Positions 7,159 to 35,197 of a stretch of DNA of 64,000 nt are shown in pieces (the first letter of the stretch is position 1; each line of letters opens with the position of its first letter). Origin of the DNA: an uncultured Dehalococcoidaceae bacterium (GTDB lineage: Bacteria > Chloroflexota > Dehalococcoidia > Dehalococcoidales > RBG-16-60-22). The translations under genes and the position numbers were made by a program. The stretch spans positions 8,421 to 72,420 of the forward strand of contig CAYXWH010000003.1 in the NCBI GenBank assembly GCA_964468755.1. The letters are read 5' to 3'. The notes beneath the pieces are model-generated. The model was not told the DNA's origin, made no database searches, and worked only from the letters and a program-made list of their open reading frames with translations.

Positions 7159-8340
7159 GTGTTAACTTTGGATATAACCAAATTAAAGTCATCGATTACC
7201 GATAAAATAGACGAGAGCCGCCAGCAACTGACCGACCTCTGTCTGAAAATACATGCCAACCCTGAACTCGGCTTTCAGGAATATAAAGCCGCCCAATGGT
7301 TAACCGAGCATCTGAGTGAAAACGGGTTCACTGTTGAACGGAATATCGGTGACCTGCCCACTGCTTTCCGGGCTACCTATGGCGAAGGGTTGCCGGCTAT
7401 CGCCGTGCTGGCTGAATATGATGCCCTACCGGAAGTCGGTCATGCCTGCGGTCATAACCTTATCGCCACCAGTGCCGTGGCTGCCGGGATAGCGGCAGCA
7501 ATCGCTGTCAGCGAACTCGGCGGCAGTGTGGTAGTCATCGGCACGCCTGCCGAGGAGCTCTACGGTGGCAAGATATTGATGGCGGAGAGAGGGACCTTCG
7601 ACCATATAGACATCGCCATGATGGTGCATCCCGGGGTACAGGATCTGGTTACCATTGAGACCCTCGCCTGCCAAACACTGGACGTAGAATTTTTCGGCAG
7701 GGAAGCCCACGCCGCTGCCCAACCGGAGGCAGGAATTAACGCCCTGGAAGCCATGGTACAGTCGTTTACCGCCATTAATTCCTTACGACAGCATACAAGT
7801 GAAAAATCCCGTATCCACGGCATCATCACCGATGGCGGGCAAGCCGCCAACATAGTGCCCGCGCACAGCGCAGGTAACTTCCTCGTGCGCGCCGAGACTG
7901 ATGACTATCTTGATGAGCTGAAGCAAAAGGTAATCAACTGCTTTTCGGGTGCCGCCATAGCCACCGGCGCCAGGCTGGAATACCGGTGGGCAGAGACCCG
8001 TTACGCCGCCATGCGCAACAATCTGACACTGGCGCGGCTCTTCCAGCAGAATATGCAGTCGCTGGGACGTGCAACTAGGTTCAGCGAACCCGGATTTAAT
8101 TTTGGCAGCACTGACATGGGTAATGTGAGTAAACTGGTGCCCAGCATTCACCCGTTCGTCGCCATTGCCCCGAACAACGTCATCGCCCACTCGCCCGATT
8201 TTGCCCGTGCCGCGGCTTCACCAGCCGGTATCCAGGGGCTTATTGACGCCGCCAAGGCTATGGCAATGACCATCGCTGACCTGCTGGCTGATAAGGAAAT
8301 GATTACCATGGCAAGAGAGGAGTTTGTCCAGAAGAAATGA
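7159..8340 (+). CDS. M20D-family amidohydrolase (AbgB/aminoacylase-like)
   Basis: 393-aa ORF with a GTG start. It has the HACGHNL metal-binding motif and the two-domain M20 pattern. An extended -10 (TGcTATAAT, 7106-7114) lies upstream. Confidence 0.8.
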   Translation: MLTLDITKLKSSITDKIDESRQQLTDLCLKIHANPELGFQEYKAAQWLTEHLSENGFTVERNIGDLPTAFRATYGEGLPAIAVLAEYDALPEVGHACGHNLIATSAVAAGIAAAIAVSELGGSVVVIGTPAEELYGGKILMAERGTFDHIDIAMMVHPGVQDLVTIETLACQTLDVEFFGREAHAAAQPEAGINALEAMVQSFTAINSLRQHTSEKSRIHGIITDGGQAANIVPAHSAGNFLVRAETDDYLDELKQKVINCFSGAAIATGARLEYRWAETRYAAMRNNLTLARLFQQNMQSLGRATRFSEPGFNFGSTDMGNVSKLVPSIHPFVAIAPNNVIAHSPDFARAAASPAGIQGLIDAAKAMAMTIADLLADKEMITMAREEFVQKK

Positions 8341-9344
8341 TAAGGGTAGGTATTCCCAGAGCGTTACTCTACTATCAGTATTATCCCATGTGGAAGACCT
8401 TTTTCGAAGCGCTTGATGCCGAAGTAATTGTTTCACCAGCCACCACCCAGACCATGCTGGCGGGTGGCTCGTCGCGGGTGGTGGCGGATACCTGTTTGCC
8501 GGTCAAGGTTTTCCTGGGTCACGTTCTCAACCTGGCCAAGGAATGCGACTATATTTTTATCCCGTCTATTCGCAGTGTAAAAAAAAGGGTCTATAACTGC
8601 TCCAAGTTCCTCGGGCTGCCGGACATGACACGGGCGGTTATCCCGGAAGCCCCCCCGATACTGGATACCGAGATTGACATCAATAAGCCGTCGCGAACCC
8701 TGTATCAGACTATCTATCAGCTGGGGCGACACTTCACCTGGAACCCGATGAAAATAAAGCAAGCCGCCACCGCTGCCTGGCAAGCCCACAAAGACTATTA
8801 CCAGCTAATGGCACAACAGACGCTCACACCACCGCAGGCAATAGCCGCCCTCACTGATAAAACAATGCCAGCACCGCAATTGCCGGCGAATATCTCACCA
8901 GCCGCCCAAACCAGGGTGGCTTTGATTGGTCATCCATATATGCTGTATGATGAACACATTAACCACCGGCTTATTACCAAGTTACAGCACTACGGCATTC
9001 AGGTTTTCATCCCGGAGATGGTCACTACTCCTGATCTGGAAATGTATACTGACCGATTGGTGGGCAATGCCTACTGGACATACGAGCACGAGGTGGTTGG
9101 CGCTGGTGGTTACTACCTGGATAGCAAGGTCGATGGTGTAATCGGCGCCATGGCTTTCGGCTGTGGTCCGGATTCACTGATGATGGACGTCGTTCGCCGG
9201 CAGGCTAACCGGCAGAGAGAACATGCCTTCATGTGCCTGACTCTGGAAGAGCACACCGCTGAAGCCGGACTGGTCACCCGGCTGGAAGCCTTCCTTGACA
9301 TGGTAACCAGAAAGAAGAGGAGACGGCAGGAACTATGCGTATAG
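8337..9344 (+). CDS. BCR/HAD-family accessory subunit (DUF2229-type, acyl-CoA dehydratase activase-related)
   Basis: 335-aa ORF starting MIRVGIPRALLYYQYYPMWKTFFEALDAEVIVS. This pattern matches the uncharacterised domain usually fused to BcrA/HgdC ATPase domains in large CoA-substrate-specific enzyme activase proteins. The start overlaps the upstream stop (ATGA). Confidence 0.7.
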   Translation: MIRVGIPRALLYYQYYPMWKTFFEALDAEVIVSPATTQTMLAGGSSRVVADTCLPVKVFLGHVLNLAKECDYIFIPSIRSVKKRVYNCSKFLGLPDMTRAVIPEAPPILDTEIDINKPSRTLYQTIYQLGRHFTWNPMKIKQAATAAWQAHKDYYQLMAQQTLTPPQAIAALTDKTMPAPQLPANISPAAQTRVALIGHPYMLYDEHINHRLITKLQHYGIQVFIPEMVTTPDLEMYTDRLVGNAYWTYEHEVVGAGGYYLDSKVDGVIGAMAFGCGPDSLMMDVVRRQANRQREHAFMCLTLEEHTAEAGLVTRLEAFLDMVTRKKRRRQELCV

Positions 9345-10420
9345 GTCTGCCTCACATAGGAAATCTGAATATAGCCATGAAAGCCCTTTTTGACGGACTA
9401 GGGGTCGACTACGTGATACCACCTCACAACAACCGGCGCACCCTTTCCCTGGGCGTCAAGTATGCCCCGGAAGGATTATGCATACCCTTCAAACTGACTC
9501 TGGGAAACATAATTGAAGCCGCCGAGATGGGAGCCGACACGATACTCATGGCGGCTGGCTACGGTATCTGCCGCTTGGGTTACTATGCCAAGATCCAGGA
9601 GCAAATACTCCATGACCTGGGCTATAACGCGGAAATGGTCCAGCTGGGAGTCTCGGAGAAGAAACTGTACGGTTTCCTGCAAATGGTCAAGCGCTTGTCA
9701 AATAACGCATCTTGGTTTAAGATAATTTCAGCGTTTCGTTTCGGGATGGCGAAGCTGAACGCGCTGGATGATATTGAGCGTCTGGTACAGAAGACACGCC
9801 CGGTAGAGCACCAGCCGGGAACTACCAACCAGCTTTATGCCAAGGCAATCCAGGACATTGACCAGGCATGTGATAACGCCAGTATAAAGAGGGTAAAGCA
9901 GGAGTACATCGAGAAACTACTGAGTGCCAATAAAAACGGCAATGCCAGACCGCTCATAGTGGGTATTACCGGTGAGTTTTACGTAGTACTTGAGCCTTTC
10001 TCCAATCTGGACATAGAGGTTGAGCTGGGCAAGCTCGGGGTAGAGGTGAGGCGGTCGACCTTTATCTCCGAGTGGACGAAATTCAGCTGGTTCTTAAATC
10101 CGCTGGGGGTCAATGAAAAAGACAGGATACACCAGGCAGCCATGCCTTACCTTAAACGAGACATTGGTGGTGATGGCTGGGAATCGGTCGGGGAAAAGGT
10201 GCTCCATGCCAAAGAATACGACGGCATTGTGCACCTGGCACCGTTTACCTGTATGCCGGAGATAATTGCCCAGAACATAATGCCAACCACCAGAGAAACT
10301 ATTCCGGTGCTGACCATTCTCTGTGATGAACAGTTAGCCAAGCCGGGAATGTTGACCAGGCTGGAAGCATTTGTTGATTTACTGGAACGGAGAAGGCGGA
10401 CCGCAAATAAAGCGCAATGA
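9335..10420 (+). CDS. BCR/HAD-family accessory subunit, second paralogous type
   Basis: 361-aa ORF starting MRIGLPHIGNLNIAMKALFDGLGVDYVIPP...GLCIPFKLTLGN. It has the same domain class as the C-terminal part of the fused activase proteins. 10-nt overlap with the upstream gene. Confidence 0.7.
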   Translation: MRIGLPHIGNLNIAMKALFDGLGVDYVIPPHNNRRTLSLGVKYAPEGLCIPFKLTLGNIIEAAEMGADTILMAAGYGICRLGYYAKIQEQILHDLGYNAEMVQLGVSEKKLYGFLQMVKRLSNNASWFKIISAFRFGMAKLNALDDIERLVQKTRPVEHQPGTTNQLYAKAIQDIDQACDNASIKRVKQEYIEKLLSANKNGNARPLIVGITGEFYVVLEPFSNLDIEVELGKLGVEVRRSTFISEWTKFSWFLNPLGVNEKDRIHQAAMPYLKRDIGGDGWESVGEKVLHAKEYDGIVHLAPFTCMPEIIAQNIMPTTRETIPVLTILCDEQLAKPGMLTRLEAFVDLLERRRRTANKAQ

Positions 10421-10441
10421 GACGAAATCTGAGGAGAGTCA

Positions 10442-11416
10442 ATGAAAGTCTATCTGGGAATTGATGTTGGGTCGGTTACTACCAAGATTGCGGCGCTCAA
10501 CCAGGATGATGAACTGATTGCCCATTGCTATATTCCCACTGAAGGCAAACCCATCACGATAATACAACAAGGCTTGAAACAAATAAAGCAGCAGTTGCCG
10601 GCTGACACCGAAATTAGCGGCGTGGCTACTACGGGGAGCGCCCGTTACCTCGCCGGGGTCATTGTGGGTGCCGACCTGGTTAAGAATGAGATTACCTGCC
10701 ATGCGGTAGCCGCCTTGCAGCGAATTCCTGAAGTGCAGACCATTATTGAAATCGGAGGACAGGACAGCAAAATCATCATTATTCGAGATAAAGTAGTTAC
10801 TGATTTCGGCATGAATACCGTGTGCGCCGCCGGCACCGGAAGCTTCCTTGACCACCAGGCGTTGAGACTCAATATGAGCATCGAAGATTTCACCCGGCAG
10901 GCGTTGAAGAGTGACACACCGGTCCGGATTGCCGGCCGCTGTACCGTTTTTGCCGAATCAGACATGGTCCATAAACAGCAAATGGGGCACCGGATTGAAA
11001 ACATTATCTACGGTCTCTGCCAGGCGCTGGTACGCAACTATCTCAATAATGTCGGCACCGGTAAGGAAATACTACCCCCGATTGCTTTTCAGGGCGGGGT
11101 TGCTTTTAATAGCGGTATCGTCAGAGCCCTTGAAGAAGAACTGAACACCACTATTGTCGTACCACCCCATCACGAGGTCATGGGAGCCATAGGGGCGGCT
11201 CTGCTCGCCCACGAAAAGGTGGTGGAATCCAGCAACGGCAGCCATTTCAAAGGGTTCGGCATAAGCGACGTGCACTATCAAACTTCATCATTTGAATGCA
11301 AATCCTGCCCGAATCTATGCGAGATTGCCCAGCTTTCAATCAATGGGAAGGTTCTTGCCCGCTGGGGTGGACGCTGTGACCTCTGGGAAAGAAGTCTCAG
11401 TGGTCAGCAATCTTGA
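10442..11416 (+). CDS. BcrA/BadF/HgdC-type ATPase (electron-transfer activase), single domain with Cys-rich tail
   Basis: 324-aa ORF. MKVYLGIDVGSVTTK and EIGGQDSK are ASKHA phosphate motifs, and CAAGTGSF is also present. The C-terminal tail is CKSCPNLCE...GRCDLWE. Confidence 0.8.
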   Translation: MKVYLGIDVGSVTTKIAALNQDDELIAHCYIPTEGKPITIIQQGLKQIKQQLPADTEISGVATTGSARYLAGVIVGADLVKNEITCHAVAALQRIPEVQTIIEIGGQDSKIIIIRDKVVTDFGMNTVCAAGTGSFLDHQALRLNMSIEDFTRQALKSDTPVRIAGRCTVFAESDMVHKQQMGHRIENIIYGLCQALVRNYLNNVGTGKEILPPIAFQGGVAFNSGIVRALEEELNTTIVVPPHHEVMGAIGAALLAHEKVVESSNGSHFKGFGISDVHYQTSSFECKSCPNLCEIAQLSINGKVLARWGGRCDLWERSLSGQQS

Positions 11417-11429
11417 CCAGAGGTAAGCG

Positions 11430-12437
11430 ATGATAATTGCCGTTGATGCTGCTGGCGGGGATTACGCCCCGCATGAAATTGTCAAGGGAGCCATAAAAGC
11501 CTCTCAGGAATACGGGGTTGAAATTGCCCTGGTAGGCAGGAGAGCCGTGCTTCACGTACTATTAGGGCGTGCCCGGCACAAACCCGGTATCAGTATCGTG
11601 GAAGCAACCCAGACAATTGGTCCCTACGAATCACCGATGAAGGCGCTGCGCAACAAGCCAAAATCATCGATCGTGGTCGGCATTAATCTGGTCAGGGAAG
11701 GCAAGGCGGCAGCATTTGTCTCCGCCGGCAATACCGGCGCAGTATTCGGTGCTGCCCTGGTCAACCTGGGTAAGACAAATGGTATTGAAAGACCGGCTAT
11801 CGGCTGTTTCCTGGATACCATCGGCTCTAACCCTGCGCTGCTGGTCGATGCCGGCGCCAATGCTGAGTGCCGCCCCAAGCATCTGGTTGAATTTGCCAGA
11901 TTAGGCTCCATTTACAGTAGTAATATCCTTAGGATTGACTCACCCCGCGTTGCCCTTCTCAATAACGGTGGAGAGGAAACCAAGGGTAACAGTCTGTCCC
12001 AGGAAAGCTATCAACTCCTTAAACAGACGAAGGAGATAAACTTCATCGGTAATATAGAAGGTCAGGATATCCTGCAAAAGTCCGCCGATGTTATCGTTAC
12101 CGACGGCTTTACCGGCAACATAGTACTCAAAACCATTGAAGGCCTTAGCGATAACTTTCTCACTTCGGCAAAGCAAATAGGGCATGTCTTTTCCAGTCTC
12201 TGTCATCTCCGCGGGCGTGACATGCTCCGCGATATCGGACTGGGTTCACTGGTCAAAAAGATGGATTACACGGAGTACGGCGGAGCCTGCCTCCTCGGTA
12301 TCCAGGGCAATGTAATCATCGCCCACGGGCGCAGTCAGTCGAAAGCGATTAAGAATGCCATCGGCCTTGCCCGAGAGACGGTTGAGCGAAGCACGGTACA
12401 GAAAATAAAGGAGGAAACGCATGAGCAAGCCAATTGA
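11430..12437 (+). CDS. plsX: phosphate acyltransferase PlsX
   Basis: 335-aa ORF with MIIAVDAAGGDYAPHEIVKGA and VTDGFTGNIVLK motifs. Confidence 0.92.
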   Translation: MIIAVDAAGGDYAPHEIVKGAIKASQEYGVEIALVGRRAVLHVLLGRARHKPGISIVEATQTIGPYESPMKALRNKPKSSIVVGINLVREGKAAAFVSAGNTGAVFGAALVNLGKTNGIERPAIGCFLDTIGSNPALLVDAGANAECRPKHLVEFARLGSIYSSNILRIDSPRVALLNNGGEETKGNSLSQESYQLLKQTKEINFIGNIEGQDILQKSADVIVTDGFTGNIVLKTIEGLSDNFLTSAKQIGHVFSSLCHLRGRDMLRDIGLGSLVKKMDYTEYGGACLLGIQGNVIIAHGRSQSKAIKNAIGLARETVERSTVQKIKEETHEQAN

Positions 12438-12747
12438 TATTGATGACAGTAATTTTGAGGAAATTGTCTCGAAGGCAAAGACACCGGTACTGATTGACTT
12501 CTGGGCACCCTGGTGTGCACCATGCAAGATGGTGGCTCCAGTGGTAGAGGAACTGTCAGCAGAATACGAAGGCAAGGTAAGCTTTGGCAAGGTCAATGTA
12601 GACGAGGCGCCGAAGATTGCTGTTAAATACGGGATTATGAGCATTCCCACCCTGATTGTTTTTAAAGACGGACAGCCGGTTTCCAATATAGTCGGCTACA
12701 GGCCAAAAGCCCAGTTAAAGGAAAGCCTGGACGCTGCGCTTGGTTGA
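12421..12747 (+). CDS. trxA: thioredoxin (WCAPC active site)
   Basis: 108-aa ORF with VLIDFWAPWCAPCKMVAPV and GIMSIPTLIVFKDGQ. The active site is CAPC rather than the usual CGPC. Confidence 0.9.
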   Translation: MSKPIDIDDSNFEEIVSKAKTPVLIDFWAPWCAPCKMVAPVVEELSAEYEGKVSFGKVNVDEAPKIAVKYGIMSIPTLIVFKDGQPVSNIVGYRPKAQLKESLDAALG

Positions 12748-13093
12748 GCATAGCATGCACGTTATCATTATCGACGATACCAGTATTGAATCCTGCGAGG
12801 CTCACTGCGGAGTTGACTGGTCTGCGGAAGAAAACATTAAACTGGCCGGTCAACGAATCACCGAACGGTTCAGCGACAGGATAGAAGTGCAGTATATTGA
12901 CCTCTCCAAGTCGTACTTCGAAAAGCAGGCCCGACAATGGCAAAGCAAGATAAAGACAGAACATTTGAACCTGCCGCTGCTGGTTATCAACGGGCGGGTG
13001 CGGATTTCCGGTCAGTTTGACGTCCGTATGCTACTGGATAGTATCGATGCCGAGCGAGAAATTACATATAAAGGTGATACCAATGGACAATAG
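12740..13093 (+). CDS. small Cys-containing protein, possibly thioredoxin-fold (YuzD/DUF1462-like)
   Basis: 117-aa ORF wedged between trxA and trxB, overlapping both. It has CEAHC near the N-terminus, YIDL, and PLLVINGRVRISG, resembling small disulfide-oxidoreductase-like proteins. The assignment is tentative. Confidence 0.4.
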   Translation: MVEHSMHVIIIDDTSIESCEAHCGVDWSAEENIKLAGQRITERFSDRIEVQYIDLSKSYFEKQARQWQSKIKTEHLNLPLLVINGRVRISGQFDVRMLLDSIDAEREITYKGDTNGQ

Positions 13094-14012
13094 CGCTGGA
13101 AAAGAATACGAGGTAATAATCATTGGCGGTGGCCCTGCCGGGCTCTCCGCCGCAATCTACACCTCGAGGGCACGGCTGAGCAGCCTGCTTATAGAGCGAG
13201 GCATAGTAGGCGGGCAAATCATCAATGCCGAGCTGGTGGAGAACTATCCGGGGTTCCCGGAAGGTATCAGTGGCATAGAACTGACCCAGCTCATGCACCA
13301 GCAGGCGACCAAATATGGACTGGCAACGGTAGTCAATGAGGTTACCGGCATTCGGCTAAACGGAGAGCAGAAAATTATCCGGACCACTGGCGGTGATTAC
13401 CCCGCCGGAGCCGTCATCATCGCCAACGGTTCTGAGCGACAAAAGCTTGGTATACCGGGGGAGGCCGAGTTCACCGGCAGAGGAGTATCCTATTGTGCCA
13501 CCTGTGACGCTGCCTTTTTCCGGGAAATGACCGTGGCCGTGGTCGGCGGTGGCAATTCCGCCCTTACCGAAGCCATCCACCTCAGCCGGTTTGCCTCCAG
13601 GGTCGTGGTAATACACCGTCGCGACCAGCTTCGGGCTACCCGGATTGTGCAGGAAAAAGCCATGGCTCTACCCAATATGGAATTCTTGTGGGATACCGTG
13701 GTCGAATCAATCGAAGGCGATGATTTCGTGCAATATCTCAAAGTACGCAACGTGAAGTCCGGGCAGCAGACCAGGCTGGATGTATCCGGCTTCTTCATCT
13801 CGATTGGCATTAAGCCCAATACCGGTTACCTGAAGGATTTAATCCCGATGGATGCCGCCGGTGCTGTCATTACCAACGACCGTATGGAAACTGAGATACC
13901 CGGCATTTTTGCCGCCGGTGACATACGGCATAACTCAGTGTGGCAGGTTATTGCTGCTGCCGGCGACGGGGCTATTGCCGCCATCGCTGCCGAAAAATAC
14001 CTCACCGGATAA
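13083..14012 (+). CDS. trxB: thioredoxin-disulfide reductase
   Basis: The ORF track starts at 13017. I prefer the ATG at 13083 (MDNSAGKEYEVIIIGGGPAGLSAA). Redox-active CATCD is present, plus a second GGGNSA NADPH-binding motif. Confidence 0.92.
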   Translation: MDNSAGKEYEVIIIGGGPAGLSAAIYTSRARLSSLLIERGIVGGQIINAELVENYPGFPEGISGIELTQLMHQQATKYGLATVVNEVTGIRLNGEQKIIRTTGGDYPAGAVIIANGSERQKLGIPGEAEFTGRGVSYCATCDAAFFREMTVAVVGGGNSALTEAIHLSRFASRVVVIHRRDQLRATRIVQEKAMALPNMEFLWDTVVESIEGDDFVQYLKVRNVKSGQQTRLDVSGFFISIGIKPNTGYLKDLIPMDAAGAVITNDRMETEIPGIFAAGDIRHNSVWQVIAAAGDGAIAAIAAEKYLTG

Positions 14013-33670: not shown

Positions 33671-34966
33671 CTAGCACCGGTTGGTCCTGACACCCAGATA
33701 CTTTGCCACCAGCTCCATAGCGCAGTATTCGCCGCACATGCTACACGCCGGACTGGCCGAGGTATGTTTCCCGTGCACGCTTTTAACCCGCTCCGGGTCC
33801 AGAGCCAGGCGTGCCTGCTCATCCCAATCAAGGTTCTTGCGAGCCAGTGACATCTTCTTGTCCCGCTCTGCCGCTCCCGCCACTCCCTTGACGATATCCG
33901 CAGCGTGCGCTGCGATTCGCGAGGCGATTACTCCTTGCCTCACATCGTCAATATCGGGTAATGACAGGTGCTCCGACGGTGTCACATAGCAGAGAAAATC
34001 GGTACCGGCAGCGGCAGCAATAGCCCCGCCGATGGCGCCGGTTATATGGTCATAGCCAGCAGCCACATCAGTCACCAGCGGCCCCAGCACGTAAAAGGGG
34101 GCTTCATGACAGAGCGACTTCTGCAAGCGGACATTGGCTTCAATATGGTTCAACGGCAAATGCCCCGGTCCTTCAACCATCGCCTGAACACCAGCCTGCT
34201 GTGCCCTCTGGACTAGCTCGCCGATGACGAGCAATTCCTCTATTTGAGCCCGGTCGGTGGCATCAGCCAGACTACCGGGACGCATACCATCACCCAGGCT
34301 CAGAGTGACATCATACTCACTGGCTATCTCCAGAAGACGGTCGTAGTGCTCATATAACGGGTTTTCGCGCTCATTATGGAGAATCCAGCCAATCAGGAAA
34401 GCACCCCCCCGGGAAACCACATCAGCCACCCTTCCCTGCTTCTTGAGACGGTCAATAGCCGACCGGGTTACCCCACAATGCACGGTCAGGAAATCAACAC
34501 CATCCCGGGCGTGCTCTTCAATGACCGAAAAGAATTCATCAACAGTCATCTTCACTATAGCACCGTGTTTGTCAATGGCTTGAATACCGGCCTGATAAAT
34601 GGGCACCGTGCCCAACGCTACCTGACTGGCGGCAACAATTGCCCGTCGAAGTCCCGATATATCACCGCCGGTGCTCAAGTCCATAACGGTATCGGCACCG
34701 GCATCAACCGCCGTCTGTAGCTTGGCTAACTCGGTATCAAAGCTGCCAAAGTCCGGGGATGTTCCAATATTGGCATTCACCTTGGTCGCCAGGCCCCGGC
34801 CAATGCCACCGGGAACGAGCCCGGTATGATTGATATTCGCCGGAATGACGATTACACCATCGGCTATACCCTGACGGATAAATTCAGCTTCCAGCCCCTC
34901 AGCCCTGGCTACCAGTTCCATTTCAGGAGAAATATCACCCTTTTTCGCCGTGTCTACCTGAGTCAT
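33671..34966 (-). CDS. thiC: phosphomethylpyrimidine synthase
   Basis: Start set at the ATG at 34966 ([10 protein letters not shown]), preceded by AGGAG. Radical-SAM ThiC pattern with the C-terminal CSMCGEYCA cluster motif. A TPP riboswitch lies directly upstream. Confidence 0.95.
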
Positions 34967-34975
34967 CGCCACTCC

Positions 34976-35116
34976 TAAAAATAAAACCAAGGGCTACGAC
35001 GACTGCTAAACCCTTGGTCCAAACTGTTTCCGCTTCCCTACGCTCGCATTACCGAGAGCAGGTTCACAGGGTTGGCACCAAATCGCCTCTCAGCCTCTTC
35101 GAGCACCCCTAGCGGT
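34976..35116 (-). ncRNA. TPP (THI-box) riboswitch with terminator expression platform
   Basis: The reverse strand reads CUAGGGGUGCUCGAAGAGGCUGAGAGGCGAUUUGGUGCCAACCCUGUGAACCUGCUCUCGGUAAUGCGAGCGUAGGGAAGCGG, containing the conserved GGGGUGC, CUGAGA, ACCCU-GAACCUG and GUAGGGAA elements. It is followed by ACCAAGGG-N17-CCCUUGGU plus UUUUAUUUUU (34976-35018). Confidence 0.85.
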
Positions 35117-35197
35117 TTAACTACTATTCCAGAATATACCACAAACTTTGTTAAAGTTCAAACGGGTAGCACCTGCCGACTTATACCGTCACCTGGT

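Follow-up and report, generated by a model that had tools for sequence, protein, structure and literature searches.

The anaerobic plasmalogen synthase PlsA/PlsR is encoded by CPE1194-1195 in C. perfringens, and occurs as a single-gene PlsA in Enterococcus, Listeria, and Bifidobacterium. PlsA is built in the order Act1-Act2-Red1-Red2 (PMC12838417), and active plsA/plsR orthologues have been reported in Listeria (PMC9702350). "Modified PlsA" Ger architectures, BBDHDDH / BBDHDHDH, were described for T. maritima and Desulfatibacillum alkenivorans, that of T. maritima being BBDHDDH, and the BB-D core was reported to be conserved in all alkyl-ether producers (PMC13159169). PlsA/PlsR and Ger are the only characterized DUF2229 enzymes, and both reduce the sn-1 esters of glycerolipids (PMC13159169, PMC8788747, PMC12838417). 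Here, we describe three adjacent genes (ORF1, ORF2, and ORF3; hereafter, the trio) in a 64,000-nt stretch of contig CAYXWH010000003.1 from an uncultured Dehalococcoidaceae bacterium. The full stretch is referred to as the window, and all coordinates without a locus prefix are window positions. The trio very probably encodes a split, three-subunit radical enzyme of the DUF2229 (PlsA/PlsR/Ger-like) branch of the benzoyl-CoA reductase/2-hydroxyacyl-CoA dehydratase (BCR/HAD) superfamily, with the architecture (ORF3)2 + ORF1-ORF2. An earlier reading of the letters alone (the sequence-only reading) had proposed three ORFs here, and they were found in the window with the positions and N-termini that it gave:

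8337..9344, + strand: ORF1, 335 aa, predicted Red1-like catalytic subunit with DUF2229 and an HGD-D-like C-terminus
9335..10420, + strand: ORF2, 361 aa, Red2/PlsR-like paralogue of ORF1, DUF2229-like
10442..11416, + strand: ORF3, 324 aa, ASKHA-type BcrAD_BadFG ATPase (activator, "archerase") with a C-terminal extension
11297..11377, + strand: 4-Cys motif of the ORF3 tail, C286-x2-C289-x3-C293-x18-C312

The Pfam profile search bore out the description of the trio as two DUF2229-type proteins and one single-domain BcrA/HgdC-type ATPase (E values of 1.9e-54, 3.7e-11, and 4.6e-45 for ORF1, ORF2, and ORF3, respectively). ORF3, which matched BcrAD_BadFG in this search, also matched the NCBIfam model TIGR00241, "acyl-CoA dehydratase activase" (E 7e-55), and its matches among PDB sequences were MbdQ (5e-41), HgdC (7e-37), HadI (4e-36), and DCCP-R (1e-24). 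Cys128 and Cys167 of ORF3 correspond to the two cluster-bridging Cys residues of HgdC; they are kept in the alignments with HgdC and MbdQ, and in 60/60 homologues. The Cys-rich tail, to which the sequence-only reading had pointed, is real: C286, C289, C293, and C312 are invariant in 60/60 homologues from four phyla, whereas HgdC, HadI, and MbdQ end at approximately residue 270, without a 4-Cys tail. The tail motif may form an extra metal site ([4Fe-4S] or Zn), which would dock ORF3 to, or relay electrons to, ORF1/ORF2.

ORF1 covered 218/218 positions of the DUF2229 model (PF09989), and its C-terminus matched HGD-D (PF06050) only over the last ~60 residues, with an E value of 1.5e-5, below the Pfam cut-off. 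ORF2 matched only the N-terminal part of the DUF2229 model, and the NCBIfam scan gave no specific model for either protein. In the PDB sequence search, ORF1 or ORF2 alone found no match at E ≤ 1; a profile of the ORF1 family found DCCP and HadC (HadC at E 1e-3), with the similarity to HAD dehydratase sequences limited to the C-terminal ~65 residues. The AlphaFold2 (AF2) model of ORF1 had a predicted local distance difference test (pLDDT) score of 94.9, and its best PDB fold matches in Foldseek were HadC/HadB, DCCP, BzdNO, and MbdON (E 6e-8 to 1e-5, TM ~0.5-0.58). The AF2 model of ORF2 (pLDDT 83.5) matched DCCP, BzdNO, and HadBC (E 4e-8 to 4e-5). As judged from these models, both proteins carry the 2-hydroxyacyl-CoA dehydratase/benzoyl-CoA reductase catalytic fold. 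In addition, the ORF1 and ORF2 families aligned with each other over 314 columns in hhalign (probability 99.9%, E 1e-36); they are paralogues, related in the same way as HadB is to HadC.

Three Cys residues are invariant in each family, in homologues from four phyla: Cys53, Cys88, and Cys276 of ORF1 (79/79 homologues), and Cys49, Cys79, and Cys306 of ORF2 (66/66 homologues). Those of ORF1 are the putative ligands of a 3-Cys [4Fe-4S] cluster. This count bears on the possibility that the trio encodes a small-molecule reductase of the double-cubane-cluster (DCCP/YjiM-like) kind, together with its reductase partner. In favour of this, DCCP ranks high among both the structural and the profile matches, and ORF3 matches DCCP-R. 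However, a 7-Cys (or 6-Cys) motif defines the DCCPs (PMC7317905), whereas ORF1 and ORF2 have only three invariant Cys residues each, and we regard this explanation as very improbable.

Among solved structures, HadBC/HadI and HgdAB/HgdC are the best matches for the trio proteins. The HAD activators (HgdC and HadI) are homodimers, and one ATPase gene is their normal state. Therefore, the single ATPase gene of the trio is not exotic. Both HAD systems combine a homodimeric one-domain activator with a heterodimer of paralogous 3-Cys [4Fe-4S] subunits, an organization that the trio would share. In contrast to the HAD enzymes, the trio has DUF2229 in place of the N-terminal part of HGD-D, an extra 4-Cys tail on its activator, and no CoA-transferase context. 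From the Cys pattern, the knowledge on HAD and BCR enzymes summarized in PMC7317905 predicts that the ATPase is a homodimer bridged by one [4Fe-4S] cluster and that the catalytic core is a heterodimer in which each subunit holds one 3-Cys [4Fe-4S] cluster, and on this basis we infer the cofactors of ORF1-ORF3. Two marks of the archerase-driven BCR/HAD superfamily, an ATPase with bridging Cys residues and paired 3-Cys subunits of the HAD/BCR fold, were found in the trio.

For the comparison with PlsA, we used PlsA-type proteins of Listeria monocytogenes (1475 aa, fused), Collinsella aerofaciens (1479 aa, fused, followed by a TetR/AcrR regulator gene), and Fusobacterium animalis (two genes, 975 + 404 aa). 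This set came from a tblastn search of plasmid records, the loci being chromosome pieces mislabelled as plasmids, and stands in for the validated proteins of C. perfringens, E. faecalis, and T. maritima. ORF3 aligned to the second ATPase domain and the Cys linker of all three PlsA-type proteins with 31-34% identity, and the CxxCxxxC-x18-C spacing of its tail is identical to that of the linker between the second ATPase domain and Red1. When all fused DUF2229 proteins compared are taken together, ORF3 was 31-43% identical to their second ATPase domain. ORF1 aligned to Red1 (residues 670-944 of the Listeria fused protein) and ORF2 to Red2 (Listeria residues 1030-1380), as well as to the Fusobacterium PlsR. 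All of the Fe-S ligand Cys residues of ORF1 and ORF2 are shared with the PlsA-type Red parts. Furthermore, 26-28 of the 40 positions that are at least 95% conserved in the ORF1 family (65-70%) are identical in PlsA-type Red1, and 23-25 of 48 conserved positions of the ORF2 family are identical in Red2/PlsR. The non-ligand residues shared by ORF1 and Red1 include K57, H62, D71, Y201, D205, W247, D279, E305, and R315, which suggests that the active-site framework of ORF1 is similar to that of PlsA Red1.

These part-by-part alignments, the shared ligand Cys residues, and the identical linker spacing uphold the proposal of the sequence-only reading that the three genes are split equivalents of the PlsA/PlsR/Ger-type fused domains: Act, Red1, and Red2, that is, every part of a PlsA-type enzyme, are present as separate subunits. 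Both the DUF2229 reduction domain and the complement of activation, Red1, and Red2 parts with a Cys-rich linker were found. The trio and PlsA/PlsR have in common the activation ATPase with its bridging Cys residues, Red1 (DUF2229 with an HGD-D end), the Red2/PlsR part, and the 3-Cys motifs in both Red parts. They differ in that the trio consists of three genes in the order Red1-Red2-Act, whereas PlsA is Act1-Act2-Red1(-Red2), and in that the trio has one ATPase gene, with a predicted homodimeric product, whereas PlsA has a tandem pair. Ger, which was compared by its description only, is likewise an anaerobe BCR/HAD enzyme and has the same B, D, and H content once the three trio proteins are summed. 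However, the trio has no BB-D core in one polypeptide; its only B gene encodes a single-domain ATPase, apart from the D proteins.

By analogy with the HAD enzymes, ORF3 would form a homodimer in which, as in HgdC and HadI, Cys128 and Cys167 bridge one [4Fe-4S] cluster, and it would receive an electron from ferredoxin or flavodoxin as the low-potential donor. Upon ATP hydrolysis, ORF3 would inject this electron into the ORF1-ORF2 heterodimer, possibly through the 4-Cys tail site. ORF1 and ORF2 would each hold a [4Fe-4S] cluster on three Cys residues, leaving one Fe free for the substrate carbonyl, which would be converted to a ketyl radical. Such comparisons are the basis on which we infer how many copies of each subunit the enzyme contains, which cofactors it binds, and what its substrate is. 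As in PlsA/PlsR and Ger, the substrate may be the acyl-ester carbonyl of a membrane glycerolipid, whose reduction and dehydration would yield a vinyl or alkyl ether; this assignment, although the one that we prefer, is tentative, and we judge the chances for and against it to be nearly balanced, with another substrate almost as probable. That both characterized DUF2229 sub-branches act on a glycerolipid ester favours a lipid substrate, and an O2-sensitive enzyme fits a host that is a strict anaerobe, as described below.

A fused relative was observed in Paraclostridium bifermentans (L082:4189-8037). This 1282-aa BB-DUF2229 protein, which adjoins a Crp/Fnr regulator and an ABC transporter, is 26% identical to the Listeria PlsA, and none of the three Cys residues is left in the second of its Red-like halves. 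Among fused proteins, the nearest relative of ORF3 is the second ATPase domain of this protein, with 43% identity. From its sequence, the protein looks like another uncharacterized sub-branch.

The genome scan covered one genome per GTDB species and yielded 80 loci, 28 in Dehalococcoidia and 52 in other lineages; 16 further loci were reached via distant cluster representatives, giving ~96 loci in total, ~68 of them outside Dehalococcoidia. The ORF1-ORF2-ORF3 arrangement was seen in 52/80 loci (22 in Dehalococcoidia and 30 in others), the ORF2-ORF1-ORF3 arrangement in 3 loci, and an ORF1+ORF2 fusion plus ORF3 in another 3 loci. The trio order is kept across four phyla, Chloroflexota, Bacillota, Actinomycetota, and Melainabacteria, and the carriers outside Dehalococcoidia are Anaerolineae, many Clostridia, Tissierellia, Thermincolia, Syntrophomonadia, Halanaerobiia, Actinomycetota, and Gastranaerophilales. 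ORF3 of Dehalococcoidia is 54-65% identical to that of the other lineages (54-62% for the Bacillota loci). In Dehalococcoidales, the trio is near-universal and core-like.

The search with ORF1 was exhaustive over 1.84 billion cluster representatives and gave 2,588 matches, of which the best 150 were examined. These best 150 (down to 193 bits) were all stand-alone proteins of ~330 aa or ORF1+ORF2 fusions of ~700 aa, whereas the Listeria PlsA-type protein scored ~55-72 bits against ORF1. The sequence-only reading had regarded a three-subunit version with one ATPase as an undescribed configuration. This view was not supported, in that the configuration is not rare: the split type fills these best 150 representatives, and homologs that are probably of this type have been noted in the literature (PMC13274423). 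The PGAP label for the split type is "acyl-CoA dehydratase activase-related protein", and another automatic annotation is "CoA protein activase". The family is thus abundant and auto-annotated, and its DUF2229-only members have probably been noticed in passing already.

Several variants of the gene order were also seen. In another lineage of Dehalococcoidales, ORF1 and ORF2 form a single fusion protein of ~700 aa (L022:448-2550, L096:7001-9121, P0391-P0473); the L096 fusion has rtcB on one side and a URO-D gene on the other, and neither an ATPase gene nor plsX is nearby. Some Anaerolineae have an ORF1+ORF2 fusion followed by ORF3, or the order ORF2-ORF1-ORF3. At L001:8963-11151, ORF2 is present as two tandem paralogues with 52% and 69% identity to the window ORF2, and at L013:4428-7176 a ~2.7-kb insertion separates ORF1 from ORF2.

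In the window, the trio is compact and self-contained (~3.1 kb), with flat G+C content over the region, and is flanked by the following genes:

7159..8340, + strand: M20 amidohydrolase gene (TIGR01891 of NCBIfam, 5e-67; Pfam)
11430..12437, + strand: plsX, phosphate acyltransferase (TIGR00182 of NCBIfam, 1e-103)
12421..14012, + strand: thioredoxin (trx), DUF1462 protein, and thioredoxin reductase (trxB), packed with overlaps (Pfam)

The junctions were read from the sequence. As the sequence-only reading had it, the M20 gene overlaps ORF1 and plsX follows ORF3 after 13 nt; the overlap is of 4 nt (ATGA), and the spacer contains AGAGG. Within the trio, for which overlaps of 4 and 10 nt had been given, the 10-nt overlap lies between ORF1 and ORF2 (ATGCGTATAG); the 4-nt overlap is in fact that of M20 and ORF1, and ORF2 and ORF3 are separated by a 21-nt spacer, with GAGGAG 5 nt ahead of the ORF3 ATG. 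No terminator-like site was found on the + strand between positions 7159 and 14012, which places the trio inside a tightly packed eight-gene array in the order M20, ORF1, ORF2, ORF3, plsX, trx, DUF1462, trxB. The DUF1462 gene (12740-13093, + strand) is wedged between trx and trxB, overlapping both, and is present in only some of the Dehalococcoidia relatives.

The plsX linkage had been taken as a pointer to a lipid enzyme, with its conservation set beforehand as the test, and in this test the pointer failed. plsX directly follows ORF3 in 16/28 Dehalococcoidia loci, and this adjacency is confined to Dehalococcoidales. It was not found within 8 kb of the trio in any of the 52 loci outside Dehalococcoidia (0/52), nor next to the trio in the further loci (0/16). 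In addition, plsX is missing from seven informative Dehalococcoidia loci (L001, L003, L009, L011, L023, L024, and L025), in which trx, trxB, or rplI comes directly after ORF3. Because plsX is absent from the 52 other loci and replaced in these seven, its adjacency is lineage-specific synteny, a matter of local gene order and not a conserved functional link. Being confined to Dehalococcoidales and lying within a syntenic housekeeping block, the plsX linkage was rejected as functional evidence. The same counts bear on an enzyme that would work at the step of PlsX and take acyl-phosphate or acyl-ACP, instead of finished phospholipids, as its substrate, with the adjacency reflecting metabolic coupling. 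The 13-nt spacing, the lack of a terminator-like site between ORF3 and plsX, and the 16 Dehalococcoidia loci would agree with such an enzyme. However, the seven loci with other genes in the place of plsX, the 0/52 count in other lineages, and an array that mixes unrelated housekeeping genes make it very unlikely.

The M20 gene is upstream of the trio in 20/28 Dehalococcoidia loci; outside Dehalococcoidia, only one weak, distant M20 match was found, ~5 kb upstream in L048, so that the M20 association is limited to Dehalococcoidia. If the trio were a classical 2-hydroxyacyl-CoA dehydratase with its activator, it would act in amino-acid fermentation, perhaps fed by this amidohydrolase. The overlap of the M20 gene with ORF1, the match of ORF3 to the acyl-CoA dehydratase activase model, and the HadBC-like folds of ORF1 and ORF2 are in line with that. 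However, ORF1 and ORF2 match DUF2229 and not full HGD-D, HadC was reached among PDB sequences only by the ORF1-family profile, HgdC and HadI have no 4-Cys tail, and the M20 association does not extend beyond Dehalococcoidia. Furthermore, no neighbour family, be it CoA-transferase or any other, was seen to recur across the ~96 related loci. The full HGD-D subunits and cognate CoA-transferase of a 2-hydroxyacyl-CoA dehydratase proper were therefore not found, in agreement with the sequence-only reading, which had set the trio apart from these enzymes, and we consider a classical dehydratase highly improbable. Both the DCCP and the classical HAD readings were rejected on the basis of the Cys motifs and the gene context.

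To survey the other contexts, all flanking ORFs of the 80 loci were clustered. Outside Dehalococcoidia, no cluster occurred in more than 11/52 loci, and the recurrent ones were spoIIA/spoVA sporulation genes, Gate-domain proteins, and HD-GYP proteins. For seven further distant representatives with Pfam-annotated neighbours, each context was different. In many loci of spore-forming Bacillota, a dacF-spoIIAA-spoIIAB-sigF-spoVAC-spoVAD-spoVAE-spoVAF block lies immediately upstream of the trio (L087 (5499-8023), L031, L032, L058, L060, L062, L067, L076, and L098). In L087, there is a 4-nt overlap between the GerA-family spoVAF gene and the ORF1 homologue, suggestive of co-transcription of the trio with a forespore operon.

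A second context was seen in four related Clostridia, including Alkaliphilus and Anaerovirgula, in which a phospholipase D (PLD)-type, cardiolipin-synthase-like gene with two HKD motifs lies ~50 nt upstream of the ORF1 homologue (L038:4532-6049; also L042, L045, and L048). After plsX, this is a second, independent phospholipid-gene adjacency, and the two adjacencies, in unrelated lineages, are weak evidence for a lipid substrate. In the third recurrent context, an uncharacterized 490-aa protein is encoded upstream, and two Gate-domain proteins and an HD-GYP protein are encoded downstream. Separately, a gene for a GltD/NfnB-like Fe-S flavoprotein (Fer4_20 + Pyr_redox_2) was observed 1-3 kb downstream of the trio in Actinomycetota and one Clostridia (L064:12096-13613, L047, L074, and L048), and its product could be a low-potential electron source for the trio. 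In Dehalococcoidia, a genuine trxB with a CATC motif takes its place.

Several of the results weigh against ether-lipid synthesis by the trio. The identity of the Red parts to the PlsA-type proteins is 20-24% (23-24% for ORF1/Red1 and 21-24% for ORF2/Red2-PlsR), whereas PlsA-type orthologues from three phyla share 35-48% among themselves; with these values and 31-34% for the ATPase, the similarity is below the orthologue level. Because the best 150 representatives all have split or ORF1+ORF2 forms, the split family appears to be a separate, deep clade and not a PlsA-type orthologue. Within Dehalococcoidia, the conservation of the trio is at the level of housekeeping or core genes, with median identities among the loci of 76% for ORF3, 71% for DnaB, 69% for ORF2, 66% for InfB, and 63% for both ORF1 and PlsX. 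The plsX linkage in Dehalococcoidales lies inside a housekeeping block, nusA-infB / M20 / trio / plsX / trx / trxB / rplI / dnaB, and no lipid-gene enrichment was found around the trio in the ~68 non-Dehalococcoidia loci. In addition, Bacillota genomes with fused PlsA/Ger were reported in 2026 to carry also "additional PlsA homologs" that lack the activation domain and whose role is unclear (PMC13274423). These homologs are DUF2229-only, co-occur with fused PlsA/Ger, and probably belong to the ORF1/ORF2 family, whereas a partner ATPase gene, the three-gene order, the 4-Cys tail, and occurrence in Dehalococcoidia are not described there. If this probable identity holds, the split type and the fused PlsA/Ger may be non-redundant within the same genomes.

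These points bear on a different assignment, in which the same machine acts on a different substrate: a third reaction of the DUF2229 branch, namely ATP-driven, one-electron reduction/dehydration of a carbonyl compound other than a glycerolipid ester. This reaction would be a core function of Dehalococcoidia, and in spore-forming Bacillota its genes would be transcribed together with the spoVA operon. The depth and separateness of the clade, the housekeeping-level conservation of ORF3 and ORF2 relative to DnaB, the probable split-type homologues beside fused PlsA/Ger, the position of the trio directly after spoVAF in many Bacillota with the 4-nt overlap in L087, and the otherwise unrelated neighbourhoods between lineages are consistent with such a reaction. 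Conversely, both characterized DUF2229 sub-branches share one substrate class, many of the non-ligand invariant residues of ORF1 are common to PlsA Red1 and suggest a similar active site, and no conserved neighbour points to an alternative substrate. We regard this assignment as quite possible, with the balance somewhat against it. The more exclusive statement, that the trio is not an ether-lipid synthase but a third DUF2229 reaction type, an ATP-driven radical reduction of another carbonyl that is core in Dehalococcoidia and built into the forespore spoVA operon of many spore-forming Bacillota, seems to us rather doubtful. As for glycerolipid ester reduction, because the identity to PlsA-type proteins is low, an ether-lipid function of the trio is taken here as a lead, not a result.

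Fervidicola ferrireducens makes dimethyl acetals (DMAs) and glycerol monoalkyl ether, and scored positive for a Ger homologue in a genome screen (PMC13274423). We found that this organism carries the split trio (L076). Because it was scored positive for a Ger homologue, its ether lipids are not discriminating for the trio.

In the literature, we found no functional study of the split module, no description of a three-gene unit with its own tailed ATPase, and no description of the one-to-one match of the trio to the PlsA parts or of its near-universal presence in Dehalococcoidales. In anoxic sediments and aquifers, Dehalococcoidia belong to the most abundant bacterial groups, and, to our knowledge, almost nothing is known about their membrane lipids. 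If the trio makes vinyl- or alkyl-ether lipids, homology screens for full-length Ger/PlsA with strict cut-offs would miss it, and the presumed sources of sedimentary ether-lipid biomarkers would need revising; in a Black Sea survey, Chloroflexota are not among the phyla named as Ger-homologue carriers (PMC11868695). If the trio does something else, it would be a widely conserved, housekeeping-grade, ATP-driven radical enzyme without a known reaction. In both cases, the assay of anaerobic expression in E. coli that has served for PlsA and Ger could be applied directly to the trio.

With respect to the host, the closest homologues were named Dehalococcoidia or Dehalococcoidales. The window also contains a Wood-Ljungdahl cluster (35773-63155), which encodes CooC-like ATPases, formate-THF ligase (FTHFS), RACo, a FolD-like protein, CODH, ACS, corrinoid Fe-S protein subunits, a methyltransferase, and MTHFR, along with NuoF/formate-dehydrogenase-like genes and an MvhD/Hdr-like region. 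The presence of this cluster indicates that the host is a strict anaerobe. A myo-inositol-1-phosphate synthase gene (299-1390, - strand; Pfam 2e-35) hints at inositol-containing lipids or solutes in the host. In addition, a TPP riboswitch (Rfam RF00059, 68.9 bits) was found at 35018-35120 on the - strand, directly upstream of thiC (33671-34990, - strand).

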